Program-made: the position numbers and the translations under genes
From: Bacillota bacterium
GTDB lineage: Bacteria; Bacillota; Dethiobacteria; DTU022
Assembly (NCBI GenBank): GCA_033549065.1
Contig: JAWSUE010000010.1
Coordinates: 68,314-132,313, forward strand
Length of the DNA: 64,000 bases
Direction of reading: 5' to 3'
Part shown: positions 28,167 to 60,782 of the stretch, in pieces
How positions within the stretch are numbered: position 1 is the stretch's first letter
Layout: each line of letters opens with the position of its first letter
Notes under the pieces: model-generated
The model's database searches: none
What the model was told of the DNA's origin: nothing
The model's input: the letters and a program-made list of their open reading frames with translations, nothing else

Positions 28167-28186
28167 CCTGATCCCTGGAAAGGATG

Positions 28187-28675: not shown

Positions 28676-28676
28676 G

Positions 28677-41470: not shown

Positions 41471-42325
41471 ATGACATTTTGGGTAGTTCAATTGTTGAAT
41501 GGATTGGCATTTTCGTCTCTATTATTTCTGCTTTCTGTAGGTTTTACCTTGATTTTCGGTTTGATGAGAATCTTGAAGTTAACCCATGGCGCCTTTTTTG
41601 CTCTTGGAGGCTACGTTGGATTAACAGTTCTTCAGGTAACAGGTAATTTTTACCTGGCCATCCTTGCCGGTGGAGCAGCAATGACTATCATCGGCTTACT
41701 TCAGCACAAAATTTTACTTCATCGATTCCACGGTATTCCCCTGAACCAGGTCTTACTCACCCTTGGACTCTGGCTGATTTATGATGATATTATTTTGGTC
41801 ATTTGGGGAGGAATCCCCCAGAGAGTTCCGCCACCACCACTTCTTGAGGGTGCCATGTCTGTCTTTGGCACTGCATTTCCCAAATATCGGTTTGCCCTTA
41901 TTCTGCTTGGTGTCGTAGTTGCCATTGTCGTCTGGTTAATTATTGAAAAGACAAAGCTTGGTGCTGTTATCCGAGCAGGGGCGGATAATGAAGAAATTGC
42001 CCGGGCGATGGGTATTAATGTCAATAAAGTCTTTATTTTTGCTTTCGGTTTCGGCTCATTCCTGGCTGGTATCGCCGGTGTCCTTGGCGCTCCATTGCTC
42101 GGACTTGAACCGGCAACATCCAGTCTAATTCTTCCACTTGCCCTGGTTGTAGTCATCGTCGGGGGTTTGGGTAGCTTAAAGGGTGCAATGGTTGGAAGTC
42201 TATTCGTTGGCCTTGTGGATAATTTCGGCCGGGTATTGATTCCCGATTTTGCTTATTTTACACTTTTTGCGCCAATGGCCCTGATTCTTATTTTCAGACC
42301 ACAGGGTATGTTTGGTCGAAAATAA
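41471..42325 (+). CDS. livH: Branched-chain amino acid-type ABC transporter permease (LivH family)
   Basis: 284 aa polytopic. GAAGGAG site. Confidence 0.75.
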   Translation: MTFWVVQLLNGLAFSSLLFLLSVGFTLIFGLMRILKLTHGAFFALGGYVGLTVLQVTGNFYLAILAGGAAMTIIGLLQHKILLHRFHGIPLNQVLLTLGLWLIYDDIILVIWGGIPQRVPPPPLLEGAMSVFGTAFPKYRFALILLGVVVAIVVWLIIEKTKLGAVIRAGADNEEIARAMGINVNKVFIFAFGFGSFLAGIAGVLGAPLLGLEPATSSLILPLALVVVIVGGLGSLKGAMVGSLFVGLVDNFGRVLIPDFAYFTLFAPMALILIFRPQGMFGRK

Positions 42326-42343
42326 AGGAGGGTGACAACAAGT

Positions 42344-43336
42344 ATGATAGCTGCGATTATAACCAAAAACAAATACAAGGTGATATTCCTGGTTGCCATG
42401 TTAGTGTTACTGGTCCTGGCGCCCCAGTTTGTATCACGTTTTACCGTTACATTGATAACTCTATGTTTTGTTTATAGCATCCTGGCCATGAGCCTTGATT
42501 TACTGGCCGGTTATATGGGTTATGCCTCCTTGGGCCATGCTGCATTTTTTGGTGTAGCCGCTTACTCGGTGGCCATTGCAAACACAAAGATGGGGTACAG
42601 CTTTTTACCATCAGTAATATTTTCCCTGGCCATAACTATTTTTCTTGCCCTGATTTTTGGTCTCTTGGTTTCCAGTCTTAAAGGAGTTCAGTTTACCCTT
42701 GTGAACCTTGCCCTCGGTCAGGTAATCTGGGGTGTGGCTTATCGCTGGTATAATCTTACCGGTGGAGATGATGGACTTCGAGGTGTAGCCAGACCGGAAA
42801 TCGGTTCACTGGTGTTACGAGGTGATTCATTCTATTATTTTGCATTAATTGTTTTTGTCGTATCGTTGATCTGCCTGGTCATGCTGGTTCAATCACCCTT
42901 TGGACAAACAATCAGGGGTATTAAACTCAGTGAATCACGAATGCGGGTTTTAGGCTATAACGTATTTTTACATAAGTACCTGAATTATATTATTGCCGGT
43001 TTTTTTGCCGGCGTAGCCGGGATATTAATGGTTTACTTCAATACTTATATAGGACCAAGTTCTTTGGAAGTGTTTGCTTCAGCTTCAGCGCTGTTGATGG
43101 TTCTGGTAGGCGGAGCCGGAACACTATTTGGTCCCATCATCGGTGCATCTTTTGTCGTTCTGTTGGAAAACTTCTTCAGCGCACAGACTGAAAGATGGAT
43201 GATGATTATGGGTTTACTGTACGTATCAGTGGTGCTGTTTCTGCCCGGAGGAATTTTTGGTCTTTTCAAAAACCTGATTAACCGTATTTTTTCCAGGAAA
43301 ATTCAGAAGCCTGTTTCTGATAGCATTGATAAATAG
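42344..43336 (+). CDS. livM: Branched-chain amino acid-type ABC transporter permease (LivM family)
   Basis: ATG 42344 lies 9 nt after AAAGGAGGGTG. Polytopic. Confidence 0.75.
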   Translation: MIAAIITKNKYKVIFLVAMLVLLVLAPQFVSRFTVTLITLCFVYSILAMSLDLLAGYMGYASLGHAAFFGVAAYSVAIANTKMGYSFLPSVIFSLAITIFLALIFGLLVSSLKGVQFTLVNLALGQVIWGVAYRWYNLTGGDDGLRGVARPEIGSLVLRGDSFYYFALIVFVVSLICLVMLVQSPFGQTIRGIKLSESRMRVLGYNVFLHKYLNYIIAGFFAGVAGILMVYFNTYIGPSSLEVFASASALLMVLVGGAGTLFGPIIGASFVVLLENFFSAQTERWMMIMGLLYVSVVLFLPGGIFGLFKNLINRIFSRKIQKPVSDSIDK

Positions 43337-43434
43337 TCTGCAGGATAATTATTGGCAGCAGGAGGTGAATTAGGGGGCAACTACTTTATGAATACTGTAT
43401 TACTGCTTACAATTCTGAGAGGAGAGTAATCTGC

Positions 43435-44703
43435 ATGATTAAAAAGATGACGGTTGGCTTGTTGGTTTTGCTAATGGTAACTGCGCTGTTCGCGGTTGCA
43501 GGATGTGGAGGAGATACAACAACACCTCCAACAGAAGAACCTGGTGAAAATGGCGAGGATCTTCCGGTAATTAAAATTGGCTTCCTTGCTCCGTTAACCG
43601 GGACTTTTGCAGCCAGTGGTGTTGACATGCGTGACGGTATGCTGCTTTACCTGTTCGAAAAAGACTCGGTTCTGGCTGGCTATAAAATCGAGGTTGTCGT
43701 TGAAGATACCGCCGGTAACCCTGATGTAGCTCTGACCAAGGCCCGTCGTTTAGTCGAACAGGAGAACGTTGATTTTCTGATGGGTGGTCTGCTCGCTTCA
43801 GAGGGATATGCTCTCTACGAGTATGCCAAAGATATGGAAATTACCTATCTGGCTCCAATCCCTTCATCTGAAACCCTGACCAAGGGCGATGTAAGCGACT
43901 ATTTCCTGAGGACCGGATGGTCCAGTGCTCAGCCGATGATGCCCCTTGGCGAATGGATGTACGAGAATGGATACAGAAAAGTAGTTTATATCGCCATGGA
44001 CTATGCCTTCGGTTATGAAACTGCCGGTGGATTCCAGAGAGCGTTCGAGAATGCCGGTGGAGAAGTAGTCAAAAAGATCTGGACTCCAATCGGTGTCCCC
44101 GACTTTGGTCCTTACCTGGCTGAGATTGCCGGGATGGCCGGTGAAATTGATGCTGTTGTTGCTACTATAGTCGGTGGTGATGCAACAAGATTTATCCCTG
44201 CTTATGCTGAATATGGTCTCAAAGATCTGCTGCCGTTGTTTGGCCCGGGTAACCTTACCGACCAATCGACTATGCAGACCATGGGTGATGAATGCCTCGG
44301 TATTATTACGGCACTCCACTATACTGATGGTATAGATACTCCCGAAAATAAGGCATATGATCAGGCATTCCGTAATCGCTACGGCCGGATGAACGGATAC
44401 TTCAATGAAGGTCCCTATACCGGGATGATGGCTTTCGAAGCAACTCTGGAGATGGTTGGTGAAAACTACAATGATCCAATCGCTTTTGCGGAAGCATTTC
44501 GCCAAATCGAGCTGATTGCACCACGTGGCCCGATGTCTATTGATGATTACAACCATCCTGTTTACAAAGTCTACATTTCTGAGGTTAAGAGGATCGATGG
44601 GATATTACGTAATATTCCATTTGACGAAATTGAAAATGTTACACAGTGGGGACCCTATACACCTGAAGAATACATGGCTTTGCCGTTATACGAAAGAGAC
44701 TAG
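43435..44703 (+). CDS. ABC transporter substrate-binding lipoprotein (LivJ/K, periplasmic binding protein type I)
   Basis: Lipobox AVAGCG, type I periplasmic-binding fold, 422 aa. Confidence 0.8.
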   Translation: MIKKMTVGLLVLLMVTALFAVAGCGGDTTTPPTEEPGENGEDLPVIKIGFLAPLTGTFAASGVDMRDGMLLYLFEKDSVLAGYKIEVVVEDTAGNPDVALTKARRLVEQENVDFLMGGLLASEGYALYEYAKDMEITYLAPIPSSETLTKGDVSDYFLRTGWSSAQPMMPLGEWMYENGYRKVVYIAMDYAFGYETAGGFQRAFENAGGEVVKKIWTPIGVPDFGPYLAEIAGMAGEIDAVVATIVGGDATRFIPAYAEYGLKDLLPLFGPGNLTDQSTMQTMGDECLGIITALHYTDGIDTPENKAYDQAFRNRYGRMNGYFNEGPYTGMMAFEATLEMVGENYNDPIAFAEAFRQIELIAPRGPMSIDDYNHPVYKVYISEVKRIDGILRNIPFDEIENVTQWGPYTPEEYMALPLYERD

Positions 44704-44716
44704 TAGAGTTATAAAC

Positions 44717-44750
44717 ATCCCGGCTGTTATTATTACAGCCGGGATTGTTT
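44717..44750 (+). terminator. Rho-independent terminator/attenuator
   Basis: ATCCCGGCTGT-tattatt-ACAGCCGGGAT followed by TGTTTAAAAA. Confidence 0.55.
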
Positions 44751-44851
44751 AAAAACCATCATGCTAGAAAGTTCAGGCTGGAGTAAAATTTTTATTGACG
44801 ATAACCCGGGCAGGAGGATACCGGTTTTATCTAGGGGGAGAGAGGATAATA

Positions 44852-45628
44852 GTGGTTAACGAGAAGAAAGGTTTGGAACCAATTGTAGTTATTGAAAATG
44901 TTACAAAGAGATTCGGGGGGCTTGTTGCTGTCGATGACGTGAGCCTTAAAGTTTATCCCGGCGAGAGACACTCAATAATAGGTTCTAATGGTGCCGGAAA
45001 GACCACCCTGTTTAACATGATCAGCGGAGAGCTTAGTGTGACCAGTGGAAAAATATATATTAAAGGTATTGACGTAACTGACATGAAAACTTATAAAAGA
45101 GTTCCCCTGGGATTGGCCCGGACATTCCAGATTACCAACCTGTTTCCTACTTTAAGTGTTTTGGAGAACGTTATTTTGGGTCTTCAGGGTATTAAGCCTT
45201 CCAAGTTCGTCATGTGGAAACCTTTAAGCAGTTACCGGGAGTACTATGAAGAAGCCGAGAATTTATTAAACCAGTTTGACCTGTGGAGGCTGAAAGATAC
45301 CCTGGTTAAAAATCTCTCCTACGGCGATCAGCGCCTGATGGAAGTAATTCTCGGTTTGGCCAGTAAGCCTGAAATATTAGCGCTGGATGAACCCAGTTCA
45401 GGTCTTTCCAGTGCCGAAACCGACCGCTTGATCGATGTATTGAATGGTTTAGAGAAAGAACTGACTATCATTCTGATCGAGCATGACATGAAGGTTGCTT
45501 ATGATGTAACCGAGAATATGACAGTGCTTGCTGATGGTGTTGTTGTTGCCGAAGGAACCGTTGAAGAGGTTCGGAATAACGAGCGGGTTAAAGAAATTTA
45601 TCTTGGAAAGGTTGCGACACAACAATGA
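44852..45628 (+). CDS. livG: ABC transporter ATP-binding protein (LivG family)
   Basis: GTG 44852 lies 7 nt after GGGGGAGAGAGG. Walker A GSNGAGKTT. Confidence 0.8.
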   Translation: MVNEKKGLEPIVVIENVTKRFGGLVAVDDVSLKVYPGERHSIIGSNGAGKTTLFNMISGELSVTSGKIYIKGIDVTDMKTYKRVPLGLARTFQITNLFPTLSVLENVILGLQGIKPSKFVMWKPLSSYREYYEEAENLLNQFDLWRLKDTLVKNLSYGDQRLMEVILGLASKPEILALDEPSSGLSSAETDRLIDVLNGLEKELTIILIEHDMKVAYDVTENMTVLADGVVVAEGTVEEVRNNERVKEIYLGKVATQQ

Positions 45629-46326
45629 TTCTTAATGTTGAAGGAGTTCACACCTATTATGGTGACAGCCACATTTTACATGGGGTTGATATCGGTGTTG
45701 AAGAGAACCAGGTTATCGCCCTTTTAGGCCGGAACGGTGTTGGCAAAACTACCTTGGTAAGGACTATTATGGGTATAGTTCAACCGAAAGAGGGCAGGAT
45801 TGAATTTAATGGAGAAGATATTACCCGTAAGCCTTCAGATATGATAGCCCGTAGAGGTCTCGGATATGTTCCCCAGGGAAGATTTGTCTTCCCCTCGCTT
45901 ACCGTTATGGAGCACCTGCAGGTTGTAGCCCGCAATTCAGAAAATGGAGCCGGTTGGACAATTGAAAAAGCACTGGACTTTTTCCCGCGTCTAAAAGAGC
46001 GCCTGAAAAACAGGGGAGATGAACTGTCCGGTGGAGAACAGCAGATGCTGGTTATAGCCAGAGCCCTGGTTACAAATCCAAAGATGCTGATCATGGACGA
46101 ACCTACGGAAGGGTTGGCCCCTGTTATTGTTGAAGAAGTGGGCAAGCTGATTCATGATATCAAGAATCAGGGTTATCCGATATTTCTGGTAGAACAAAAT
46201 ATATCTTTTGCTACCGAAGTTGCTGATGTGACCTATATTATGTCGAAAGGTACTATAGTCTACAAGGGATTGCCGCAGGAACTGCTTGCCGACAAAGCCT
46301 GTATGGATGAACATCTCTGCGTCTAG
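45625..46326 (+). CDS. livF: ABC transporter ATP-binding protein (LivF family)
   Basis: Walker A GRNGVGKTT, LSGGEQQ signature motif. ATGA overlap with the previous gene. Confidence 0.8.
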   Translation: MILNVEGVHTYYGDSHILHGVDIGVEENQVIALLGRNGVGKTTLVRTIMGIVQPKEGRIEFNGEDITRKPSDMIARRGLGYVPQGRFVFPSLTVMEHLQVVARNSENGAGWTIEKALDFFPRLKERLKNRGDELSGGEQQMLVIARALVTNPKMLIMDEPTEGLAPVIVEEVGKLIHDIKNQGYPIFLVEQNISFATEVADVTYIMSKGTIVYKGLPQELLADKACMDEHLCV

Positions 46327-46392: not shown

Positions 46393-47247
46393 ATGCGATT
46401 AACAGATAATATATATTTTTCTCGTCTTGATTTTGATATTAACATGCCTGATGGTTCTAAAAATTCCAGGATGACTTATGCGGTATTGTTAAAATACCGG
46501 GATATTTGCCTGGTTGACAGTGGTGTAATGCCTACCATAAATGATCTTTTAAAAATGTTTAAAGAGGCAGAGGTGGAAGCCGGAGATATTAATTATTTAA
46601 TCAACACCCACTGCCACTTTGATCATTCGGGGGGGAATGCTCTTCTTAAAGAGCTTAATCCTCATTTGCAGTTAATGTCTCACCCTGCAGGGCAGGAATT
46701 TATAGAGTCCCCTGAAGCTCAAAATTCTGTAAGGCCGGTTCCATCATACAGGGACCTTGTTAAAGACGGCGTAAAGGTAGACAGGCTGCTTGCAGAAGGC
46801 GATCTGATTGACATAGGAACGCCACTTGAAATAATCTATACCCCCGGCCATTCCAGGGATTCAATAAGCGTCTACCTGCCAAAGGAAAAACTGGTAATTG
46901 TCGGAGATGCCATTCCTCTTAGCGGAGATCTTCCTATCTATGAAGATCTCAATGCACTGAAAGAATCCCTTAATAAAATTGGCAAACTCGACTATCGATA
47001 CATGCTGACAGCTTTTCAGGGTTTATATGATAGAAATGAAGATCCGGATGGAAAAAATAATCCCATAGATCAAGCCCTGGGATATCTGGATGTCATTGAT
47101 AAACATGTTAAGTCTATAACGGATGATGATCCATCCCTTAGTGTTAATGAAATTACCGGCAAATTAGTATCTGAATTGAACCTTCCACCGAAATTCCCTC
47201 CATTTGTATACACGAGTGTTGCAGAGCATGTAAAAAATTTAAAATAA
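46393..47247 (+). CDS. MBL-fold metallo-hydrolase
   Basis: HCHFDHSGG metal-binding motif. Confidence 0.7.
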   Translation: MRLTDNIYFSRLDFDINMPDGSKNSRMTYAVLLKYRDICLVDSGVMPTINDLLKMFKEAEVEAGDINYLINTHCHFDHSGGNALLKELNPHLQLMSHPAGQEFIESPEAQNSVRPVPSYRDLVKDGVKVDRLLAEGDLIDIGTPLEIIYTPGHSRDSISVYLPKEKLVIVGDAIPLSGDLPIYEDLNALKESLNKIGKLDYRYMLTAFQGLYDRNEDPDGKNNPIDQALGYLDVIDKHVKSITDDDPSLSVNEITGKLVSELNLPPKFPPFVYTSVAEHVKNLK

Positions 47248-47278: not shown

Positions 47279-48352
47279 ATGGGAGATACCTATCCTACCT
47301 TAAAAGTTGCGGCTGTCCAGGCTGTGCCGGTATTTCTTGATCGGGAAGCAACTACGGAAAAAGCATGTAAATTAATCCGGGAAGCCGGAGAGGGAGGAGC
47401 AAAATTTATAGTATTTCCGGAAGGTTTTATTCCTTCTCACCCGGTATGGTATCATTTTCACCCGGGCACAAGTTCTACAGGAATCAAGCTGAGTGTTGAA
47501 CTCTTCAAGAATTCTGTCGAAATCCCCGGCCCACAGATTACCGATCTCTGCCAGGCGGCCAAAGATGCTGAAGCCTATGTTGTAATGGGACTTTGTGAAA
47601 AATTACCTAATACTATTGGAACAATGTATAACACGCAGGTTTTTATCGGTCCTGACGGAAGTTACCTGGGCAAACATCAGAAGCTTGCGCCTACGGTTGG
47701 AGAGAGGTTGGTCCATAAAGGCGGGTTTGGTGACACTTTCGGTACTATTGAAACCGAGTATGGTCCTGTCAGCGGCCTGCTCTGCAGTGAAAACTCCAAT
47801 CCTTTGATGATCATGGCTTTATGCGCCGAAGGTACCAGAATCCATGCTGCGGCATGGCCAAATCATTGGAGCAAACTCCAGAAGTCAATGAAAGAATTTG
47901 TATCAATAGCTACATTGAATTTTGCTCAGGCTACAAAAGCATTTGTGATCAGTTCATGCGCTACAGTAGATGAACGAATGATCAAAATGATGGAATTAAC
48001 CCCTGAAGAAGAAAATATACTTAGAGAACCTGAATATGCCGGAGGGTCGATGATTGCGGCTCCCAATGGCAAATTGATAGCCGGACCCATGGGAAATGAA
48101 GAAGGTATCCTTTATGCAGATATTGATCTTGAACTATCTGTAAGACATAAGCTGGAGCATGATTTTGCCGGTCACTATAATCGTTCTGATGTATTTCAGC
48201 TGTTTATTAACAGAAATGCTCCACAACTATATATCCAGCAGGGAAAAAAATTTCCCGATCCGGAAAATCTTTTTGAAAAGATTCAGGATTCATCAGATAT
48301 TGATGAGTTGGCTTTGAATTATTTTCAGGATGAAGAATCAGATGGATGTTAA
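47279..48352 (+). CDS. Nitrilase-family carbon-nitrogen hydrolase
   Basis: Catalytic triad context FPEGF (Glu), Lys, and LLCSEN (Cys). 357 aa. Confidence 0.75.
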   Translation: MGDTYPTLKVAAVQAVPVFLDREATTEKACKLIREAGEGGAKFIVFPEGFIPSHPVWYHFHPGTSSTGIKLSVELFKNSVEIPGPQITDLCQAAKDAEAYVVMGLCEKLPNTIGTMYNTQVFIGPDGSYLGKHQKLAPTVGERLVHKGGFGDTFGTIETEYGPVSGLLCSENSNPLMIMALCAEGTRIHAAAWPNHWSKLQKSMKEFVSIATLNFAQATKAFVISSCATVDERMIKMMELTPEEENILREPEYAGGSMIAAPNGKLIAGPMGNEEGILYADIDLELSVRHKLEHDFAGHYNRSDVFQLFINRNAPQLYIQQGKKFPDPENLFEKIQDSSDIDELALNYFQDEESDGC

Positions 48353-48387
48353 TAAATAACTAATCAGCCCGGTGGGAGAGTTTATAG

Positions 48388-49530
48388 ATGAAAAAGGTTC
48401 TTATTGTTGACAGTAATTATGAAAACTGCATTGAAGCTGTAAGGGAAGTATTTGCCCAATTCCCTTCGAATCTGCGTGGGAAAAAGGTTGCCGTTAAGGT
48501 AAACGCGATCAAAGCAGGCGACCCGGACAAAGATGCCTTTACAACCAACTATAATTTTGTTAAAGCAGTAATCAGTCACCTGGAAACTCTCGGGCCATCG
48601 TCAATTGTTGTCGGTGATTCTGTGGGAACCGAGTCGTACGGTAATTCTGATGATGTTTTCACCAGGGCCAGGCTGAAAGAAGCTGCCGGTCCCTATTATA
48701 AAAACTTTAATCAGAATCTTGAACTGGTAGAATTGGGAAGACCTCTCAAACGAAAAGTGGCGGTATTGAAGGATATCCTTGATGCCGATTTTTATATTTC
48801 GCTCCCAAAATTGAAAACCCATGGATTAACCCTGCTGAGCGGGGGAATGAAAAATAATTTTGGACTGCTCACGGGAGCTCAAAAATCCTGGTACCATTAT
48901 TACTCAAAAACACCGGAAGCTTTTGCCTCGATCGTAACTGAAATGTTCCGTTTGCGACCCCCTGATCTGGTTGTCATGGATGCCGTTTTGGCTATGGAAG
49001 GTTACGGCCCGGCTTCTCCTGAAACTAGGTGGGTAAAAAAAGTAATTGCCTCAGATGATGCAGTAGCGCTCGATACAGTTGCTGCTAAAATTGTTGGATT
49101 TACCGTAGAAGAAGTGCCCACTTTATCCCAGGCCAGGGATTTAAGTTTGGGGGAAACTTTCCTGGAGAACATTGAGATTATTGGTGAGGCCCCTACTATA
49201 CAGGAATACCATCGTCCCACACCGCCTGAATTGTCTTACAGCTATAAAGCCGGGGTAGGCTCGGGCAGGACTTCAATCGAATTCTACCGGGTCCGGGTTG
49301 CCATGCGGCCGGTTTTTGATCCTGAAAAATGTCAGGCAGGTTGTACAATATGTGTCGATAACTGTCTATTTAAAGCTCTAAGCAGGGATGAGGGATTACC
49401 TGAGATTAATCCTGCTTTGTGTATGTTATGCAGTGGTTGCAAGGAAATTTGCCCTTATGATGCGGTACAGCTTCTACCGGATGATACGATAGTTAAAGAG
49501 CTGGAAATTAAAGAAAAAGACTGGATGTAA
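48388..49530 (+). CDS. DUF362-domain protein with C-terminal 2x[4Fe-4S] ferredoxin domain
   Basis: N-terminus KVAVKVN...DP resembles DUF362. C-terminus CQAGCTICVDNC...CMLCSGCKEICP. Confidence 0.6.
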   Translation: MKKVLIVDSNYENCIEAVREVFAQFPSNLRGKKVAVKVNAIKAGDPDKDAFTTNYNFVKAVISHLETLGPSSIVVGDSVGTESYGNSDDVFTRARLKEAAGPYYKNFNQNLELVELGRPLKRKVAVLKDILDADFYISLPKLKTHGLTLLSGGMKNNFGLLTGAQKSWYHYYSKTPEAFASIVTEMFRLRPPDLVVMDAVLAMEGYGPASPETRWVKKVIASDDAVALDTVAAKIVGFTVEEVPTLSQARDLSLGETFLENIEIIGEAPTIQEYHRPTPPELSYSYKAGVGSGRTSIEFYRVRVAMRPVFDPEKCQAGCTICVDNCLFKALSRDEGLPEINPALCMLCSGCKEICPYDAVQLLPDDTIVKELEIKEKDWM

Positions 49531-49698: not shown

Positions 49699-49729
49699 TC
49701 AGTAAATAAGACAAGGAGGTTTGACAGGT

Positions 49730-51049
49730 ATGCAATACGGTCAGTTTGCTGTTGATTATGAGCATCGCCCTTATAATCCTGAAAGAATGCGTATTGAAAG
49801 AGTAGAGCGGGCTCAGCAGGCTTTAAAAAAACATGGTCTCGGGGCGTTAATCCTTTATGACTATGATTATCACCGTTATTTAGGTTACTATTCTTACCAT
49901 CAATATGCGAGGCGCAGGTTAGGTACTTACGTATTATTGGTTCAGGGACAGGGATTTCCATATGTCAACGTTGATAAATATGAACACGGTTGGGAAAGCT
50001 TAAGGATGCCCTGGTTTGAAGGTAAAATGGTTTTAAAATCATCAAAACCTTACCAGCTTTGCAACGGGTTACCCGACACCCCCGAATTCATGGAAAAATC
50101 CTTTGAAGAGAACGCTGCAGAAATAAAAGCACTGCTTAAAAAGCATGATTTGCTTGATATGCCGGTCGGTATCGATGTTGCGAGCGCACACCTACTCGAT
50201 GTTTTGAGAAGAAACGGCTTAAATGTTGTAGATGGAAATAACTGTATGGTTGATGCCATCAGGGTAAAAACTGAGGATGAAATTCACTGTCTGCGCATGG
50301 CGGGTGCGATTACCGAAGCTGCTCACTGGGAAGTAGCCCAGGCGTTGCGTCCGGGAATGACTGAGCTGGAGATAGCCGGTATTGCGGCCAATGGATGTTT
50401 CAAGCATGGAGCAGAAGAACTTGAAGGCCCCAGCTTTGTCGTTTGTTCCGGTGAACGTTCCGGATACGGATTGCCGAACATGCCTACTGACAGAAGAGTA
50501 AGGCCTGGTGATTTTGTGGTTCTTGACATAAATGGTGTCAGCTTTAACGGCTACCGGACCTGTTTTTACCGTACATACCTGGTTGGTGACAAACCGACTG
50601 AATTCCAGAAAGAAGTTTATGATATCGCCTACGAAGGCTTGATGGCCATGTCGTCCTGCATGAAGCCGGGTATCACAACAGCCGATGTTCAGAAAGAATG
50701 GCTTAAAAAAGGCGATGCACCGGGACTCTGGGGTAGAGAACCAAAATGGCCGGAACCGGGACGTTATTTCTTTGGTTCAGGCGGACATCCCATAGGGCTG
50801 CGTTCAGGTGATCCGGGCGCAACCATAGCAGGTTCAGGCTGGATTTTCGGGGACTTCCCGGGTGGCAAAATTGAGAAGAACATGACATTTGCCAACGAAG
50901 TTGCAGTATTTACCTGGCTGGGAGACAGATGGGCAAAAGACGGTGTTAAACTGGAACACTGCGGTGTTGTAACCGATGACGGCTTTGAAATCTTCTACCG
51001 CTTCCCGATGAAAGACCTGATCGTTTGCGGATTGCCGGGCCTATACTAA
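49730..51049 (+). CDS. M24-family metallopeptidase/creatinase-like hydrolase (creatinase N-domain plus pita-bread fold)
   Basis: ATG 49730 lies 10 nt after AAGGAGG. Two-domain Xaa-Pro aminopeptidase/creatinase architecture, 439 aa. Confidence 0.7.
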   Translation: MQYGQFAVDYEHRPYNPERMRIERVERAQQALKKHGLGALILYDYDYHRYLGYYSYHQYARRRLGTYVLLVQGQGFPYVNVDKYEHGWESLRMPWFEGKMVLKSSKPYQLCNGLPDTPEFMEKSFEENAAEIKALLKKHDLLDMPVGIDVASAHLLDVLRRNGLNVVDGNNCMVDAIRVKTEDEIHCLRMAGAITEAAHWEVAQALRPGMTELEIAGIAANGCFKHGAEELEGPSFVVCSGERSGYGLPNMPTDRRVRPGDFVVLDINGVSFNGYRTCFYRTYLVGDKPTEFQKEVYDIAYEGLMAMSSCMKPGITTADVQKEWLKKGDAPGLWGREPKWPEPGRYFFGSGGHPIGLRSGDPGATIAGSGWIFGDFPGGKIEKNMTFANEVAVFTWLGDRWAKDGVKLEHCGVVTDDGFEIFYRFPMKDLIVCGLPGLY

Positions 51050-51200: not shown

Positions 51201-52517
51201 ATGCCTTCATCGAATAACCCCCGGGTAGTGATTACCCATCGAGAATCTATCCCCGGTACACCTGGCAGCTATACAAATGAAGAACTTGCTGTTGTCTATG
51301 AAATGGTCAGAGAATCGGTAGATATACTTGGTGGCATAGATTCTATAATAAAGCCGGGCGATAAAGTTGTAGTTAAGATCAATGCCGGTGTTCCTACTCC
51401 TGCAGACAAGGGATATGATACAGATCCACGAGTTCTTGAGGCTGTTATCAAGTTGATCAAAGAGGAAACAAAGGCGGAATCTGTTAAGGTAATTGAAAGA
51501 TCTGCTTCCTATGGGGACACTTCAAAATCTCTCGAGGTTTCCGGTTTAAAAGCTGCTGCTGAACGGGCAGGTGTTGATGAAATTATCAATCTGCAGCATG
51601 TTGAACGGGTTTCAGTTCAGGTACCTAAACCTGAAGTTCTTTTTGAACCGGTTATGCTTCCCCGGTGCCTACTTGAAGCCGACAGGATTATTTACATTCC
51701 CAAAATGAAAGTTCATAAGCTTACCCAGGTATCGCTGTCCATGAAGTTAAGCCAGGGTTTACTGGCCTGGAGCGATATTCACCGCAACCACCGGACCGAT
51801 ATTGATCAGAAAATGGCCGATCTCCTGCAGCTTATCAAGCCCGATCTTATTATCATGGATGCCCTTTGGCCTACGCAGGGTCAGGGTCCGGTATCGCCAT
51901 TTCCGGACGATTTAATCAAAGATTTTAATGTAATAATTGCCGGAACTGATTCGGTTGCAGTTGATACAGTTGCCTCTACTATTATGGGGTTTGAACCCCT
52001 TCACGAGATACCTATGATCAGAACCGCATCCATGCTCGGTCTGGGTGAAGGTAGCCTTGAAAAAATTGAAGTATTGGGCACTCCAATAGAGAAGGTTAAA
52101 CGTAACTTCAGGCGAGGTAATATTGACCTGGCCGGGATTCATCCCAAGGTTAAAGCTTATTACGGAAGCGCCTGTAAGGGTTGCATACATTTGACCAGGA
52201 CTAGTCTTGACTCATGGTTGGCCATTCCTGAAAACCTCAAGCAGCTAGAGCAGCTTGAACAGCTCACATTTATCATAGGGCCGCGGACTACAGTCCCCGA
52301 TAACATTCCACACAATCCTCCTCATTCATACACATTTGTTATTGGCGACTGTGCCTGTGAGCACAAGAATAAAGGCATATTTTTACCGGGTTGTACTTCC
52401 TGGAGTATCGCTCAGATGGACTTTATCGGAAAGACTGAAGAAGAACTGGTCGATTGGTATCTGAAACGTTACCCCGGGGTTGAGAAAGATGAGAATCAAT
52501 GCCCGTTAATACCCTAG
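51201..52517 (+). CDS. DUF362-domain protein with non-canonical Cys-rich C-terminus
   Basis: N-terminal region is paralogous to 48388 and 63460 (KVVVKINAG...DP, TDPRVLEAVIKLI). C-terminus CKGCIH...GDCACEH...PGC. Confidence 0.6.
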   Translation: MPSSNNPRVVITHRESIPGTPGSYTNEELAVVYEMVRESVDILGGIDSIIKPGDKVVVKINAGVPTPADKGYDTDPRVLEAVIKLIKEETKAESVKVIERSASYGDTSKSLEVSGLKAAAERAGVDEIINLQHVERVSVQVPKPEVLFEPVMLPRCLLEADRIIYIPKMKVHKLTQVSLSMKLSQGLLAWSDIHRNHRTDIDQKMADLLQLIKPDLIIMDALWPTQGQGPVSPFPDDLIKDFNVIIAGTDSVAVDTVASTIMGFEPLHEIPMIRTASMLGLGEGSLEKIEVLGTPIEKVKRNFRRGNIDLAGIHPKVKAYYGSACKGCIHLTRTSLDSWLAIPENLKQLEQLEQLTFIIGPRTTVPDNIPHNPPHSYTFVIGDCACEHKNKGIFLPGCTSWSIAQMDFIGKTEEELVDWYLKRYPGVEKDENQCPLIP

Positions 52518-52553
52518 CATTAAATTCTTACTTACAGGAGGATGATATTATCG

Positions 52554-53582
52554 ATGAAAGCGATGGTACTGGAAGAGTTTAACCAGCCTTTAAAATTGAG
52601 AGAGTTAGATATACCGAAGCCTGCCGCTGATGAAGTGCTGATCAAGGTGCGTGCTTGCAGTATTTGCGGAACAGATTTAAAAATTATCAGCGGCAAAATT
52701 GACACTGTTCCCCTGCCCCTGATACCCGGGCATGAATCAACCGGTGATGTAATCGAGATTGGGGCCGAAGTAAAAGATTTGAAAGTGGGCGACAGGGTAA
52801 CGGTGGATCTTTATGTAACCTGTGGTCAGTGCAAAAATTGTCTCGCCGGAAGAAATACCATTTGCATGGAATCAATAAAACGGTATGGTTTTGAAGTTAA
52901 CGGTGGCTTTGCCGAATACATGGTAGTCAAAGAAGAAAAAGCGGTAAAAGTACCCGACACTATGACCTACCCCGAAGCGGCGCTTATACCGGATGCTATT
53001 GCCACTTCTGTCCGGGCCTTTGCTGACAGGTATCATCTTCAGGAAGGTGAAATAGTGCTGGTTCTCGGCATAGGTGGCCTGGGAATACACGGTGTCCAGG
53101 TGGCAAAAGCATATGGAGCCACTGTAATTGCTGCAGATGTGGATAATAAAAAACTGCAGAGGGCCAAAGAATTGGGCGCAGATTATACCTGCAACACCGC
53201 CGAAGAAGATCTTGTCGCATTTTGCAAATCACTGACAAACGGTTATGGTGTGGATGTTGTCGGTGAGTATGTAGGCATCCCAAAGGTCAGTGAACTTGGG
53301 TTGAAATGCCTGAGAATGGGTGGAACGATGATCTTCCTCGGTTATGCTCCCGGTACTGTTTTTGAGGTTCCCTCCATGGATATAGCTATGGGCGAGAGAA
53401 CTATTACCGGTTCGAGAGCAATGGACAGGAAGAGTATGCTGGAAGCAATCAGGTTGGTCAGCGAAGGTAAGGTAAAGCCGCAGGTAGACAGCTACTTTGC
53501 GTTGGAAGATGCAAATGCAGCGCTGGAGAGGTTGAAAGGCGAAGGCTACCTTGGCAGGGGATTGCTTGCTATAGATTTATAA
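52554..53582 (+). CDS. Zinc-dependent alcohol dehydrogenase (MDR family)
   Basis: N-terminus MKAMVLEEF, structural-zinc CGQCKNC motif, Rossmann GIGGLG. Confidence 0.8.
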   Translation: MKAMVLEEFNQPLKLRELDIPKPAADEVLIKVRACSICGTDLKIISGKIDTVPLPLIPGHESTGDVIEIGAEVKDLKVGDRVTVDLYVTCGQCKNCLAGRNTICMESIKRYGFEVNGGFAEYMVVKEEKAVKVPDTMTYPEAALIPDAIATSVRAFADRYHLQEGEIVLVLGIGGLGIHGVQVAKAYGATVIAADVDNKKLQRAKELGADYTCNTAEEDLVAFCKSLTNGYGVDVVGEYVGIPKVSELGLKCLRMGGTMIFLGYAPGTVFEVPSMDIAMGERTITGSRAMDRKSMLEAIRLVSEGKVKPQVDSYFALEDANAALERLKGEGYLGRGLLAIDL

Positions 53583-53662: not shown

Positions 53663-54499
53663 ATGGGTAAAAGGTACACTTGTGATGAGGTTGTTGCCCG
53701 CTTGAAAAATGAAATAGCAAACAAAAGATCGATTCTCCTGGTTGGTGTAGGCAACGGCATAGTAGCGAAAATGTGCGAGCTCGGCGGAGTTGATTTGATT
53801 GCAACATATATTATGGCTCGCTACCGGATGGCCGGACATAGTTCTATGCTTGGTTATCTTTCCATAGGAGATGCGAATGCGGTAGCTCTGGAGTTGGGAG
53901 AACGCGAAGTAATTCCAGTTGTCAAAGAAACCCCGGTCATTGCCGGTCTTCTTGGGTGTGATGTAACCCGTGACCTCGGTTATTTGCTGGATCAGGTGAA
54001 AGCGGTTGGTTTTTCGGGGATTCACAACTGCCCCACGCTTGCCCTGATTGACGGGGTCTTCAGGCAGGTTCTGGAAGAGACCGGCATCAAATTTGATCGT
54101 GAAGTAGAAATGGTCCGGCTGGCCCGTGAACGGGACCTATTCTGTGAAGTATTTGTAACTAACGAAGAAGAAACAGAGAAGATGGTAAAAGCAGGAGCCA
54201 ATTTGATCATCGCCCACATGGGCAATTCTCTCGGGGGAACTATTGGCTCGGATTATACTTTAACACTTGATGAATCTGTAGAGCGCACCCAGAAAATTAT
54301 CGACGCGGCCAGGGCAATAGATCCCGAAGTTATTACCATGTGTCATGGTGGTCCCATCGCTTATCTCGATGATTTTAAATATGTTCTCTCCCGGGTAAAG
54401 GGACTCGATGGTTTTATGGGTGGTTCCAGTGTTGAGAGACTTCCGGTTGAGAAAAGCCTCCTGGAAGTGGTTCGCGAATATAAATCGGTAACATTGTGA
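53663..54499 (+). CDS. Phosphoenolpyruvate-hydrolase-like TIM-barrel protein (COG5564, Tm-1 C-domain-like)
   Basis: 278 aa. Conserved partnership with the following UPF0261 gene. Confidence 0.5.
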   Translation: MGKRYTCDEVVARLKNEIANKRSILLVGVGNGIVAKMCELGGVDLIATYIMARYRMAGHSSMLGYLSIGDANAVALELGEREVIPVVKETPVIAGLLGCDVTRDLGYLLDQVKAVGFSGIHNCPTLALIDGVFRQVLEETGIKFDREVEMVRLARERDLFCEVFVTNEEETEKMVKAGANLIIAHMGNSLGGTIGSDYTLTLDESVERTQKIIDAARAIDPEVITMCHGGPIAYLDDFKYVLSRVKGLDGFMGGSSVERLPVEKSLLEVVREYKSVTL

Positions 54500-54511
54500 G
54501 GGTAGAATGTA

Positions 54512-55762
54512 ATGGCAAAATGCGTTGCCTTAATCGGTGCATTCAATACAAAAAGAAAAGAGCTTGAATACATCAGGCAGAGTTTACTGAAGAATAAACT
54601 GGAAACGATTTTGATTGACCTGAGCTGTCTGGAATATGAAGACTCGGAGAGTAAAACCGATTACTCCCAGGAAATAGTGGCCAATAAGGCAGGAGTAAAC
54701 ATTGAAGATGTTTTTGGCAAGCCCCTTTTCAAGGTTGCTCCTCACATGTCACTGGGGGCCTCTCGGATACTCTCTGAGCTGATTGAAGAGAATAAGATCC
54801 ATGGCTGTATCGGCATCGGGGGTGCTAATGGAACACTGCTTGCTGCTTCAGTGATGGAGAACCTGCCTTTTGGATTTCCGAAGGCGATCATCTCGGTTAT
54901 GGCAGCCGTTGATTCCAGGCGTCTGATCAGCCATACCGATATAGTCCTCTTCAATACAATCGGTGACGCAGTCCTTAATCCAGTCCTTGAAGTAATGATC
55001 AAGACTGCAACCGCAGCCCTTAAAGGGATGGTTGATGCCGCTGTTAAACCGGATCTGCCTCAAATGGTCGGCTTGACTGTGTTAGGGGTAACAGATCAAT
55101 GTGTTCATCAGTGCATGGAGCTGTTGAGTGAAAAAGACTATCCGTACCTGCTGTTGCACAGTAATGGCCCCGGTGGAGCCACTTTGGAGAAGATGACTTC
55201 ACGGGATGCTTTTTGGGGCATTCTCGACATAACGACTAATGAGCTGTTGAACAATCTGCTTGGGGGAGTTTTTGATGCTGGTTCCAACCGGCTGGAAGCG
55301 GCCGTGAAAAAAGGACTGCCCCTTGTTGTATCAACCGGAGCGGTCGATTTTGTTAACTTCTGGGGGCTCCAGATACCTGAAAAATATCACGGCAGGCTTT
55401 TCATCAGGCATAATATCGTTAATACACTGATGAGAACCGATCCCGATGAAAATGCTCTTCTGGGCAGGGTAATGGCCGAAAGATTGAACAGAGCCGTAGC
55501 TCCGGTAAAAGTGTTAATTCCGGAAAAAGGATTTTCCAAGTATGATCGCCAGGGCGGCATCAAGGGCACAGATCTTGATGGGAATGTCCGTGGAGACTGG
55601 TACTGGCCGGAAGCAAACCGGGCTTTTGTTAATTCGCTTCAGGAAAATTTATCCAATGAGCTGGTCAGGGTGGAAGTAAAGAATATGCATGTAAATGATC
55701 CCGATTTTTCAAGAGAGTTGGTTGATGCCTTACTGGCGATTAAGATTGCAAATGAGTTTTAG
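54512..55762 (+). CDS. UPF0261 (COG5441) family protein (Tm-1 N-domain-like)
   Basis: 416 aa. N-terminus KCVALIGAFNTKRKE resembles the UPF0261 start. Confidence 0.5.
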   Translation: MAKCVALIGAFNTKRKELEYIRQSLLKNKLETILIDLSCLEYEDSESKTDYSQEIVANKAGVNIEDVFGKPLFKVAPHMSLGASRILSELIEENKIHGCIGIGGANGTLLAASVMENLPFGFPKAIISVMAAVDSRRLISHTDIVLFNTIGDAVLNPVLEVMIKTATAALKGMVDAAVKPDLPQMVGLTVLGVTDQCVHQCMELLSEKDYPYLLLHSNGPGGATLEKMTSRDAFWGILDITTNELLNNLLGGVFDAGSNRLEAAVKKGLPLVVSTGAVDFVNFWGLQIPEKYHGRLFIRHNIVNTLMRTDPDENALLGRVMAERLNRAVAPVKVLIPEKGFSKYDRQGGIKGTDLDGNVRGDWYWPEANRAFVNSLQENLSNELVRVEVKNMHVNDPDFSRELVDALLAIKIANEF

Positions 55763-57607: not shown

Positions 57608-57648
57608 TACTATTGGCTCTAATAGATCAAGTAGGAGGAAAATAAACA

Positions 57649-58197
57649 TGAATATTGACATTCACACTCACTATTTACCGCAGGAATTTATAGACCTGGT
57701 CAAAAAGGATCCGGTGAAGTACCAGGCCAGAATTGAAAAGAACGACCTTGGGGAAGAGATTATTTATCATGATCAGGGATATTCCTATCCTCTCTATCCC
57801 GGTTTTTATGATCTTGAGGCACGTCTTCGTGATATGGACGCTAGGAACATTGATCTGGATATTTTATCAATAGCACCCACGCTGTATTATTACTGGGCGG
57901 AAAACTCTCTTGCTCTTGAAATCGCAAAAATATGCAATGACAGCGTATACAGGATGGTCCAACAAAAACCTGAAAGACTGAAGGCGATGGCTACAGTTCC
58001 GAACAATAACGCACTGGGGACCTGCCCTTAAAGCGCTGATTGATACGCATTCAGCTGATAAGATAATGTTGGGTAGCGATTACCCCTTTGATATGGCCGA
58101 TCCTGATCCTGTAAGAAGCGTAAAAAGTTTAAATCTTGATAGTGATACAGAAAAGAAAGTTCTCGGTAGCAATGCAGAAAACTTGTTTCGGGATTGA
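57649..58197 (+). pseudogene. Amidohydrolase-2 (ACMSD-like) remnant with internal deletion and frameshift
   Basis: N-terminal fragment MNIDIHTHY... ends at the 58031 stop. A C-terminal fragment ...ADKIMLGSDYPF...NAENLFRD runs in the +1 frame to 58197. About 120 middle residues are missing. Confidence 0.6.
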
Positions 58198-58240
58198 TTT
58201 GAAACTGATTGAGATTTGTGAAAACTAAGAGGTGATAAAT

Positions 58241-60082
58241 GTGGACTGCTTAAAAGGCAAATTGTTGGAAATTAATTTATCCAGCGGCCAGACCAGGGTG
58301 CGCGATATTGATGATAAAGTTCAGAAGCTGTTCTTTGGGGGCAGGTCTCTGGGCGCAAAACTGCTTTATGATGAACTAATGAAAGGAGTAGAACCCCTTT
58401 CACCGGATAATAAGCTTTTTGTTTTAACCGGTCCTGTAACCGGAACCATCGTGCCGAATGCGGGGAAGTATGTGGTTGTAACCAAATCACCGTTGACCGG
58501 AGCTTTTCTTGATTCCTATGCCAGTGGTTTGATATCGGCACAGATCCGTTTTGCCGGTTATGATGGTTTGCTGATCAGTGGAAAAGCTGAAAAACCGGTT
58601 TATATCTGGATTAAAGACGATCAGGTTGAAATAAGAGATGCCGGTCATCTCTGGGGTAAAGATACGATCGAATCAGAGGATCTGATCAAAGAGGAAACAG
58701 AAGATCAGGCCGGTGTGATGGTCATCGGCCCTGCCGGAGAGAAGATGGTTAGAATAGCCAGTATTAACAGTGATCACTACCGGCAGGCAGGCAGGGGCGG
58801 CGGTGGAGCTGTCATGGGTTATAAAAACCTGAAAGGCATAGCAGTTTTTGGTACCGGTGATGTAATCCCCCATGACGGGAAAAAGCTGCAAAAGAAATAT
58901 GAAGAAGACCTATCAAAGCTGCTCTCAAGTGATGTGGGCGTTGCCAGAAAGAGATTTGGTACTCCCCTAACCCTGACAATCACAAACAAGGCAGGAATGC
59001 TGCCGGTCAATAATTTTCAGAAATGTACTTTTCCGGAGGCTGTTGATCAGATCGATGGTTTAGGCGTTGAAAAATCAACGATTAAAACACGGGCTTGCTG
59101 GGGATGCATGGTTGCCTGTTCGAAAATAACCAAGGTTATAGAGGAGGGCCCCTATGAAGGTGATGAAGTCGAAGGACCTGAATATGAAACACTGAGTATT
59201 TTGGGATCAAACCTGGGTATCGCCACCCTGCCTCCGATAATCAGGGCTAATATACTTTGTGACAGGTTGGGCATCGATACCATCTCTGCCGGTGTTGTTA
59301 TCGCTTTCGTTATGGAGTGTTACCAGAGAGATCTTCTCAGTGAAGACGAAATTGGTGTCAAAAATCCCGCTTTCGGTAATGATGCAGCAGTTATGGAATT
59401 GATCGAGATGATTGCTTACAGGCGGGGCTTCGGTGATAAAATGGCTGAAGGTACTCTGCGCCTTGCTGAAGTTGTCGGTAAAGGCAGCAGTGTATTTGCC
59501 ATGCATGTGAAAGGTATGGAGTTCCCGGGGTATGAACCTAGAGCTGCCTTCGGAGCATGTCTTTCTTATGCTGTATCCCCCCGCGGCGCCTGTCACCGCC
59601 GGGCCTGGCCACCTGCCAAAGAAGTGCTCGGAGGATACCCTCCCTTTACCACGGAAGGCAAAGCGGAAATCGTCAGAGATCTCTATAATGAAAATGGTAT
59701 CCTGCACAGCCTGCTGGTATGCGATTTCCCCGCTAAATTTATACCGCTCAATATGGCAGATTACGCCGAGTATGTAACCTATGCCTGCGGTATGGAAACC
59801 ACCCGGGAAGACCTGCAGCAGATGACAGAACGTGGTGAAACGATGATCCGCATGTTCAACAACAGGGAAGGATTCACCCGGGATGATGATACTCTGCCGG
59901 CCAGGATATTGGAAGAAACCCTATCCGATGGCCCAAACCCGGGACAGCGTTTTACGAAAGCCGATCTCGATTTTATGATCGATGAGTATTATGCACTGAG
60001 GGGATGGGATTCAAAGGGAACACCTTTGCCTGAGACCTTGAAAAAACTGGGCATAGAGGATCAGGGGAGGGCTCTAAAATGA
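58241..60082 (+). CDS. Aldehyde:ferredoxin oxidoreductase family tungsten enzyme (AOR), paralog 2
   Basis: GKLLEINLSSG...GGRSLG AOR N-domain. GTG 58241 lies 6 nt after AAGAGGTGA. Confidence 0.85.
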   Translation: MDCLKGKLLEINLSSGQTRVRDIDDKVQKLFFGGRSLGAKLLYDELMKGVEPLSPDNKLFVLTGPVTGTIVPNAGKYVVVTKSPLTGAFLDSYASGLISAQIRFAGYDGLLISGKAEKPVYIWIKDDQVEIRDAGHLWGKDTIESEDLIKEETEDQAGVMVIGPAGEKMVRIASINSDHYRQAGRGGGGAVMGYKNLKGIAVFGTGDVIPHDGKKLQKKYEEDLSKLLSSDVGVARKRFGTPLTLTITNKAGMLPVNNFQKCTFPEAVDQIDGLGVEKSTIKTRACWGCMVACSKITKVIEEGPYEGDEVEGPEYETLSILGSNLGIATLPPIIRANILCDRLGIDTISAGVVIAFVMECYQRDLLSEDEIGVKNPAFGNDAAVMELIEMIAYRRGFGDKMAEGTLRLAEVVGKGSSVFAMHVKGMEFPGYEPRAAFGACLSYAVSPRGACHRRAWPPAKEVLGGYPPFTTEGKAEIVRDLYNENGILHSLLVCDFPAKFIPLNMADYAEYVTYACGMETTREDLQQMTERGETMIRMFNNREGFTRDDDTLPARILEETLSDGPNPGQRFTKADLDFMIDEYYALRGWDSKGTPLPETLKKLGIEDQGRALK

Positions 60083-60471
60083 AAAGAATAAAAGTAATCA
60101 AGGAAAACTGTTATGACTGCAGAATTTGTGAACTTGTCTGCTCCCAGACTCATACTGGCGTATACAGACCTATGATGAGCCGCATAAAAGCGCCTTCTTC
60201 AATACCGGGGTCGGATAAACCTGTCGTCTGTCGTCAGTGTAAAAAACCTAAATGCGTGGAAGCCTGTCCGACCGGTGCTCTGACCAAAGGTGAGGAATGG
60301 ATCCTCTTTGACGAATCCCTTTGTGACAGCTGTGGGTTATGTGTGGAGGCCTGTCCTTTCGATGCTATATGGCTGGTTGAAGAGAAACTTCTAAAATGTG
60401 ATTTATGTGATGGAAATCCCCAGTGCGTTGCCGTCTGTCCCGGCAAGGCACTCGTTTATGAAGATTATTGA
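60079..60471 (+). CDS. 4Fe-4S dicluster ferredoxin-like electron-transfer subunit (AorA-like)
   Basis: Four Cys clusters (CxxCxxC...CP repeated). ATGA overlap with the AOR gene. Confidence 0.7.
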   Translation: MKRIKVIKENCYDCRICELVCSQTHTGVYRPMMSRIKAPSSIPGSDKPVVCRQCKKPKCVEACPTGALTKGEEWILFDESLCDSCGLCVEACPFDAIWLVEEKLLKCDLCDGNPQCVAVCPGKALVYEDY

Positions 60472-60499
60472 TCCATATGAAAGAAACGCAGGTGAAAAT

Positions 60500-60775
60500 A
60501 TGAAAGTAATGATTCATCGGGTAGCGATAGCCGAAAACCTGCCTCCTCATTTTGAATTTAAACTTGAGGATAATGCAACATTTCACGATCTTGTTGTTCG
60601 TCTTAATGATGAATACGGCGAAGGAACCAGCGAAAAGATACTGTCCGGGGACAAACTTCGGGAGGGTGTTTTAGTCCTGGTTAATGGTAAATCCCTGCTT
60701 CAACTGGGAGGCCCTGAGCTGATTTTGAATGACGGCGACGATATTATGCTGGCTGTAACTGTATTTGGTGGTTAA
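60500..60775 (+). CDS. MoaD/ThiS-like ubiquitin-fold sulfur-carrier protein
   Basis: 91 aa, ends in VFGG (C-terminal Gly-Gly). Follows the AOR and ferredoxin genes. Confidence 0.55.
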   Translation: MKVMIHRVAIAENLPPHFEFKLEDNATFHDLVVRLNDEYGEGTSEKILSGDKLREGVLVLVNGKSLLQLGGPELILNDGDDIMLAVTVFGG

Positions 60776-60782
60776 AGGGGAT

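Follow-up and report, generated by a model that had tools for sequence, protein, structure and literature searches.

The nitrilase-family genes that twice stand immediately before DUF362 genes in a 64,000-nucleotide stretch of a Bacillota bacterium (GTDB lineage Bacteria; Bacillota; Dethiobacteria; DTU022; GenBank assembly GCA_033549065.1, contig JAWSUE010000010.1, positions 68,314 to 132,313 of the forward strand; the whole stretch is called the window below, and positions are counted from its first letter) belong to a pairing that is confined to this genome. The pairing did not turn up in other genomes; it is hence a local gene order and not a two-part enzyme, and the nitrilases are neither obligate partners or subunits of the DUF362 proteins nor clients that these mature. 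We regard as an evenly balanced proposition that the DUF362 proteins are self-contained, ferredoxin-linked oxidoreductases of the LarA fold, which reside in a mosaic catabolic island and for which the nitrilases are not obligate partners. What is new here is the presence of further members of the known, uncharacterised DUF362 family within such an island. The genes under study are the following.

47279..48352, forward strand: CNH1, a CN_hydrolase similar to branch-1 nitrilases and cyanide dihydratases (Pfam CN_hydrolase, 129.7 bits).
48388..49530, forward strand: DUF362a, a DUF362 domain of predicted LarA fold followed by a C-terminal 2x[4Fe-4S] ferredoxin domain (Pfam DUF362, 141.3 bits; Fer4_6; Fer4).
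49721..51049, forward strand: M24 family (creatinase/prolidase-like) hydrolase (Pfam Peptidase_M24; weak similarity to PDB structures).
51201..52517, forward strand: DUF362b, a DUF362 domain followed by a C-terminal domain with four conserved Cys (Pfam DUF362, 140.4 bits).
62570..63400, forward strand: CNH2, a Nit2/PH0642-like CN_hydrolase (Pfam CN_hydrolase, 125.1 bits).
63460..64000, 5' part only, forward strand: DUF362c, a member of the DUF362b subfamily (Pfam DUF362, 74.4 bits for the partial sequence).

The profile scores of all three DUF362 genes and both CN_hydrolase genes exceed the Pfam gathering thresholds (24 bits for PF04015 and 23.2 bits for PF00795). This bears out the gene content proposed in a first-pass annotation, namely, two nitrilase-superfamily genes, each followed by a DUF362 gene, and a third DUF362 paralogue after the M24 gene. 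The intergenic gaps are 35 nt (CNH1-DUF362a) and 59 nt (CNH2-DUF362c), and each contains a purine run resembling a ribosome-binding site. The DUF362c gene runs off the end of the window, as noted previously; the window covers its first 180 residues, ending just before K182, and the full-length protein (P0123, 436 aa) is encoded on the same 133,568-bp contig. The open reading frame (ORF) of CNH2 could start at 62555 or at 62570, of which the ATG at 62570, annotated earlier and preceded by GGAGG 8 nt upstream, is most likely the start as judged from the sequence. Scans for promoters and terminators yielded counts no higher than chance, and a tblastn search against plasmids returned three uninformative matches. 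Whereas DUF362b and DUF362c are 57-58% identical, DUF362a is only 31-33% identical to either of them and CNH1 is 26% identical to CNH2, so the two pairs are not recent duplicates, and an origin of both by recent tandem duplication is ruled out. Under random gene order in the 58-gene window, the chance of both adjacencies together is ~0.002, and therefore the arrangement is non-random within this genome.

Other genomes give a different picture. We surveyed 79 loci with relatives of DUF362a from species-representative genomes and 80 loci with relatives of DUF362b and DUF362c from metagenomes, along with the contexts of individual orthologues; ORFs were called with a simple greedy procedure that reproduces the window genes, and CN_hydrolases were detected by an iterated search that recovered three very different members of the family in a control locus. 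Across 113 dereplicated loci, a CN_hydrolase was the immediate neighbour of DUF362 in 0/104 cases upstream and 0/104 downstream. Any CN_hydrolase within ~6 kb was found at 6 of 153 DUF362-ORF loci, with the nearest one three ORFs away, and the family is not among the commonest ones listed in Pfam scans of 306 DUF362-neighbour ORFs. DUF362 is likewise absent from five distinct contexts of CNH1 orthologues (63-71% identity), and fusions of CN_hydrolase with DUF362 were not found among the best 120 homologues each of DUF362a, DUF362b and CNH1. The hydrolases that do recur beside DUF362 come from superfamilies other than this one (Amidohydro_1, M24, MBL and S15).

This survey largely refutes the model put forward in the first-pass annotation, in which a nitrilase and a DUF362 protein form a two-component enzyme or, alternatively, DUF362 serves as a maturase of the hydrolase. 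The two independent, closely spaced and statistically improbable adjacencies in one window and a near-adjacent case in another genome (L094, described below) speak for this model, which we nevertheless consider very unlikely: the expected co-occurrence in other genomes is missing in both directions, fusions were not found among the best 120 homologues, the two hydrolases come from different branches of their superfamily, and the DUF362 proteins paired with them come from different subfamilies. Nitrilase-superfamily enzymes employ a Cys-Glu-Lys triad and require neither metal nor Fe-S maturation; a maturase role of DUF362 was rejected because nitrilases require no metal cofactor.

The conserved neighbours of DUF362 are of other kinds. 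The DUF362a orthogroup is tight (54-68% identity) and comes chiefly from Desulfobacterota and Syntrophia metagenome-assembled genomes (MAGs). Among the 70 ORFs located within two positions of its members, there are 7 NAD_binding_2 dehydrogenases, 5 Amidohydro_1 proteins and 3 M24 proteins with a Creatinase_N domain, and Liv and TRAP transporters as well as MBL hydrolases are also enriched. The order Amidohydro_1, DUF362a, dehydrogenase is found in L007 and L008, and variants with M24, cupin, MBL or Mo hydroxylase in L002, L006, L011 and L012. The amidohydrolase resembles L-hydantoinase (1GKR, E 2e-103), and the dehydrogenase is akin to tartronate-semialdehyde reductase and 2-hydroxymethylglutarate dehydrogenase (3CKY-like, E 7e-38). 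These partners suggest that an N-heterocyclic or unsaturated acid is first reduced and that C-N hydrolysis and aldehyde reduction follow. The earlier proposal that DUF362 is an Fe-S redox partner can be retained in part: a redox step in amide or heterocycle breakdown is reasonable because the DUF362a orthogroup recurrently clusters with C-N bond hydrolases, but the specific partnership with nitrilases does not hold.

A more specific version of the oxidoreductase reading, to which we lean only tentatively and with more doubt than conviction, is that DUF362a-type proteins are ferredoxin-dependent ring (C=C) reductases of an N-heterocyclic acid, in a route that would proceed from reduction to hydrolysis by the cyclic amidase, hydrolysis of the linear amide (by a nitrilase-family or M24 enzyme) and aldehyde reduction. 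The recurrent order of hydantoinase-like amidohydrolase, DUF362-Fer4 protein and beta-hydroxyacid dehydrogenase fits such a route, and so do the adjoining TRAP or Liv transporters and the split four-gene Mo hydroxylase that is encoded in the window and, in the same architecture, directly 5' of the DUF362b orthologue in L005, with a Mo hydroxylase also present in L011. The neighbours of the DUF362a orthogroup, namely a 1GKR-like cyclic amidohydrolase, the beta-hydroxyacid dehydrogenase, a Mo hydroxylase of the split type and transporters for carboxylates, follow the logic of reductive N-heterocycle modules, such as dihydropyrimidine dehydrogenase (PreT/PreA) with dihydropyrimidinase and beta-ureidopropionase, and Ndh-Hnr-Ena-Hgd of nicotinate fermentation in Eubacterium barkeri. 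PreA contains a 2x[4Fe-4S] domain, as does DUF362a, and the nicotinate dehydrogenase of E. barkeri has a four-subunit architecture like that of the split Mo hydroxylase. This likeness is, however, one of gene context, and homology of DUF362 to known reductases is not part of it: a flavin-binding (FMN/FAD) domain is not detectable in the DUF362 proteins, and only the window has a nitrilase-family step. Furthermore, the neighbouring amidohydrolase is hydantoinase-like rather than enamidase-like, CNH1 is of the true nitrilase/cyanide-dihydratase type rather than the carbamoylase type, and the idea that the E. barkeri 6-hydroxynicotinate reductase (Hnr, EC 1.3.7.1) might be a DUF362 protein may be wrong and carries little weight here.

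The neighbourhoods of the DUF362b type differ from those of DUF362a. The commonest family within two positions is the Zn-dependent alcohol dehydrogenase (Zn-ADH; 7 of 140 ORFs), and separate Fer4 proteins, Amidohydro_1 and AFOR are present as well. In the settings of DUF362b and DUF362c relatives, an MBL gene lies immediately 3', or else a Zn-ADH gene is followed by MBL and then by a Liv transporter. M24 stands immediately 5' of DUF362b in L112 (an orthologue of the window M24, E 1e-247) and L134, and M24 genes are found near DUF362 in 11 further loci besides L112. AFOR, a 4Fe-4S protein, a MoaD-like small protein and an S15 hydrolase, as in the window, surround DUF362b-type genes in L087, L091, L105, L106 and L140. 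Homologues of the window MBL protein (E 1e-33 to 1e-54) occupy the first or second position downstream of DUF362 in L011, L012, L090, L102, L116, L117, L119 and L121, and Liv-type transporters flank DUF362 orthologues in L010, L015, L017-L022, L116 and L117.

A nitroreductase-like gene is located immediately 5' of the DUF362b-type gene in 13 of the 80 metagenome loci (L086-L088, L091, L092, L095-L097, L104, L105, L110, L132 and L140; the copies in L095 and L104 are partial, at contig ends). It encodes a nitroreductase-fold protein of ~183-257 aa, is co-oriented with the DUF362b-type gene and is not found in the window. As a possible dedicated partner of DUF362b, this protein has more in its favour than the nitrilases do.

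The window holds two gene orders that can be compared with these neighbourhoods: first, MBL - (CNH1) - DUF362a - M24 - DUF362b - Zn-ADH - PEP_hydrolase - UPF0261, of which the block from DUF362b to UPF0261 is kept in L005, and second, AFOR - Fer4 - MoaD-like - S15 - (CNH2) - DUF362c. In both orders, the element missing from the related neighbourhoods is the nitrilase-family gene, and CNH1 and CNH2 look like lineage-specific additions to DUF362 neighbourhoods.

The DUF362 proteins of the window carry two kinds of Cys-rich C-termini. DUF362a contains eight conserved Cys, C315-x3-C-x2-C-x3-C and C345-x2-C-x2-C-x3-C-P, and qualifies as a 2x[4Fe-4S] protein by its Fer4_6 and Fer4 matches and its two four-Cys motifs. 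DUF362b contains C325-x2-C328, GDC384 and PGC398, and these four Cys (CxGC, GDC, PGC) are all conserved within the subfamily and shared with DUF362c; in the Pfam scan, this type had no Fer4 profile match. The difference between the two C-termini thus stands as described in the first-pass annotation, except that the first motif of DUF362a (residues 315-326), taken there as canonical, is CX3CX2CX3C rather than CX2CX2CX3C and is kept in this form across the orthogroup, and that C386 of DUF362b, counted there as part of the cluster, is not conserved in the subfamily. The CX3CX2CX3C motif is superficially radical-SAM-like, yet it lies inside the ferredoxin-fold domain; a radical-SAM enzyme was rejected on this ground, with no radical-SAM domain detected. 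The Fer4 matches, the conserved Cys and a literature search agree with the view of DUF362 as Fe-S proteins without an assigned function. In that search, PF04015 was mentioned only as an outgroup or in a clan note, and papers on the nickel-pincer nucleotide (NPN) made no mention of Fe-S-fused relatives of LarA.

The fold of these proteins points to the LarA superfamily (DUF2088; PDB 5HUQ, 7S91, 9EIA). The AlphaFold2 models are confident (pLDDT 91.9 for DUF362a and 92.1 for DUF362b), and in Foldseek searches against the PDB, the best matches of DUF362a are LarA-family racemases (E 4e-7, probability 1.0, TM ~0.4), and DUF362b matches LarA-family structures as well (E 7e-9, probability 1.0, TM ~0.4), its nine best alignments spanning 462-503 columns and covering both LarA domains. 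For both models, LarA-family NPN racemases are the only significant PDB structure matches over the DUF362 domain; the weaker matches of DUF362a cover the ferredoxin domain only. By these models, the DUF362 proteins are predicted to adopt the LarA (nickel-pincer racemase) fold, in agreement with Pfam clan CL0471, which groups DUF362 with DUF2088 (PMC11770544). At the sequence level, the relationship is distant, with 9-18% identity and no match between hidden Markov models: the window proteins match PF04015 alone and not PF09861 at E <= 1e-3, and PDB sequence searches with both DUF362 proteins and two profiles returned matches to the ferredoxin domain or nothing, and no LarA. In a set of 96 dereplicated DUF362 proteins, six residues (in DUF362a numbering K143, H145, K155, G159, H170 and D229) show 100% conservation, and both complete window proteins have them. 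H145, K155 and H170 correspond to H172, K182 and H197 in DUF362b. The invariant spacing H-x9-K-x14-H (H145/K155/H170) is close to that of His174, Lys184 and His200 of LarA (PMC11770544), and the two sets may be equivalent.

The same observations bear on the possibility that DUF362 proteins are nickel-pincer-nucleotide enzymes like LarA, or use a similar Lys-tethered cofactor, and that the Fe-S domain turns the hidden hydride shuttle of LarA into net ferredoxin-coupled redox chemistry on hydroxy or oxo acids. The shared fold and clan, the spacing of the invariant His/Lys/His set and neighbourhoods rich in hydroxyacid and alcohol dehydrogenases are compatible with this idea, but we consider it unlikely. 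The equivalence to the LarA residues comes from spacing and not from a residue-level alignment, and the position equivalent to Arg75 of LarA is not conserved in the DUF362a subfamily. In addition, the Fe-S sites of DUF362 proteins have no counterpart in LarA, and Lar cofactor-synthesis genes are missing nearby: larB/larC/larE-like genes are absent from the 64-kb window and are not among the top 25 families listed in the three neighbour scans (306 ORFs). It is similarly a long shot that DUF362 (COG2006) as a whole is a large, unrecognised LarA-type class, with a nickel-pincer-like cofactor tethered to Lys, or else a metal centre at the same site, wired to Fe-S, and we attach the same low credence to hydroxy or oxo acids or N-heterocycle intermediates being the substrates of net ferredoxin-dependent oxidoreduction by such a class in anaerobes. 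Genomes without LarA can carry genes for Lar cofactor synthesis, and Fe-S-wired DUF362 proteins of the LarA type, if real, would help to explain this.

Our preferred reading, that of ferredoxin-linked oxidoreductases of the LarA fold, draws on domain content, fold, invariant residues and the distinction between conserved and non-conserved neighbours. Under this scenario, low-potential electron carriers would reach each DUF362 protein via its own Fe-S site, which would hold two [4Fe-4S] clusters in the DUF362a type and consist of one four-Cys site in the type of DUF362b and DUF362c. Reduced ferredoxin would feed electrons via the Fe-S site into a catalytic centre situated where LarA has its cofactor; this centre, lined by the invariant Lys/His/Lys/His/Asp, would reduce an unsaturated or oxo intermediate or catalyse the reverse reaction. 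The C-N bonds would then be opened or trimmed by the neighbouring hydrolases, and the resulting aldehydes and hydroxy acids would be handled by the dehydrogenases and AFOR. The nitrilase genes may share a pathway or a transcript with DUF362 in this organism.

Several points weigh against this reading. Ferredoxin dependence, the direction of the reaction, the substrate class and even redox catalysis are deduced from domains and context, and the searchable literature holds no biochemical datum for any DUF362 protein. The family is functionally heterogeneous, given that distant DUF362-Fer4 relatives (30-37% identity) are located among housekeeping genes. The survey loci are biased towards relatives of two queries, and the ORF heuristic is simple. 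With regard to the nitrilases, a second DUF362 gene lies two ORFs from the CNH1 orthologue in L094, and the CNH1 orthologues in L127 and L135 are ~3 kb from a DUF362b gene. The double adjacency in the window is improbable by chance, and the short gaps between the hydrolase and DUF362 genes suggest co-transcription; a genuine local functional link between DUF362 and the nitrilases might exist in this organism.

The two nitrilase-family proteins are clear relatives of different known enzymes. CNH1 is closest, among PDB entries, to cyanide dihydratases and nitrilases (E 4e-56) and, in a nine-sequence MAFFT alignment, shows the triad motifs FPEGF, HQKLAP and LLCSEN at the Glu, Lys and Cys positions; against the Nit6803-family profile TIGR04048, it scores 179.2 bits, far under the curated cut-off of 502.6, which places it outside that family. 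CNH2 is related to the Nit2- and PH0642-type amidases (E 2e-15) and, in the same alignment, keeps FPESY and LICSE, but its KYMRTSP motif puts Arg at the position of the expected catalytic Lys, which could mean either that the triad is atypical or that the alignment is shifted. The same replacement, in the form GKY(M/R)RTSP with the Glu and Cys motifs kept, is seen in the CNH2 homologues L165:8733-9566 and L171:7114-7947.

In other Firmicutes, CNH1 orthologues and a CNH2 relative are operon mates, together with Amidohydro_1, Amidohydro_2 and two FAA hydrolases; CNH2 is 50% identical to the 277-aa CN_hydrolase within the CNH1 operons of L165 and L171. L165, L171 and L172 have intact Amidohydro_2 orthologues within their CNH1/CNH2 operons, and the window retains a decayed copy.

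57648..58191 (ORF 57579-58031), forward strand: Amidohydro_2 pseudogene with an internal deletion, detected with tblastn.

The remnant matches aa 1-117 and 261-327 of its L005 orthologue, which is intact, at 69-70% identity and has lost the middle third; a Pfam scan of its ORF found no domain, although tblastn did match. Because the nitrilases share an operon elsewhere and the window holds this decayed Amidohydro_2 gene, the island looks reshuffled. A Fer4_7/Fer4_16 protein of ~405-417 aa is encoded near CNH1 orthologues (L094:1846-3060, L127:7403-8623 and L170:3304-4557); the L094 and L127 copies have weak reductive-dehalogenase matches.

The remaining genes of the island are as follows.

41471..46326, forward strand: Liv-type ABC transporter with two permeases, a binding protein (43435-44703) and two ATPases (Pfam BPD_transp_2, Peripla_BP_6, ABC_tran).
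46393..47247, forward strand: MBL-fold hydrolase (Pfam Lactamase_B, 82.7 bits).
52542..53582, forward strand: Zn-dependent alcohol dehydrogenase (Pfam ADH_N, ADH_zinc_N).
53663..55762, forward strand: PEP_hydrolase-like (PF09370) and UPF0261 gene pair, both uncharacterised (Pfam).
58232..62540, forward strand: AFOR, 4Fe-4S protein, MoaD/Urm1-like small protein and S15 (CocE/NonD-type) hydrolase (Pfam).

UPF0261 is also located near DUF362b in L090, L124 and L125. The MoaD/ThiS/Urm1-like protein (60398-60775) follows AFOR and the ferredoxin in the window, and its true start is probably later because ~70 nt of the longest ORF lie within the gene before it; a MoaD-like protein beside AFOR near DUF362b is found in L096-L098, L104-L106, L126 and L004. 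The split Mo hydroxylase comprises four genes at 27237-30952, which include those for the FAD subunit, MoCoBD_1 (423 aa) and MoCoBD_2 (335 aa); the 163-aa ORF that separates the gene for the FAD subunit from that for MoCoBD_1 has the 2Fe-2S (Fer2) subunit as its L005 counterpart. Upstream of the Mo hydroxylase, at 22219-27221, are a GntR regulator, an HpcH-type aldolase and a TRAP transporter. In a single 534-aa ORF at 10007-11611, a complete phosphofructokinase domain is joined to an RNase H domain at the N-terminus; unless the TTG start was wrongly annotated, such a fusion is unusual. The island, which encodes transporters, the Mo hydroxylase with its split subunit, numerous C-N hydrolases, AFORs and dehydrogenases, is best explained as a large mosaic of an anaerobic Bacillota MAG, for uptake and breakdown of N-containing organic acids or heterocycles.

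DUF362 is a very large family without an assigned function, and exposing the pairing with nitrilases as local averts a misleading guilt-by-association annotation. Starting points for its function are the LarA fold with the invariant Lys/His/Lys/His/Asp set, the built-in Fe-S sites and the partners specific to each orthogroup, that is, a hydantoinase-like amidohydrolase and a beta-hydroxyacid dehydrogenase for the DUF362a type, and a nitroreductase-like protein, MBL, Zn-ADH and AFOR for the DUF362b type. Should DUF362 proteins turn out to be LarA-type enzymes coupled to ferredoxin, nickel-pincer or LarA-fold chemistry would reach beyond racemases.

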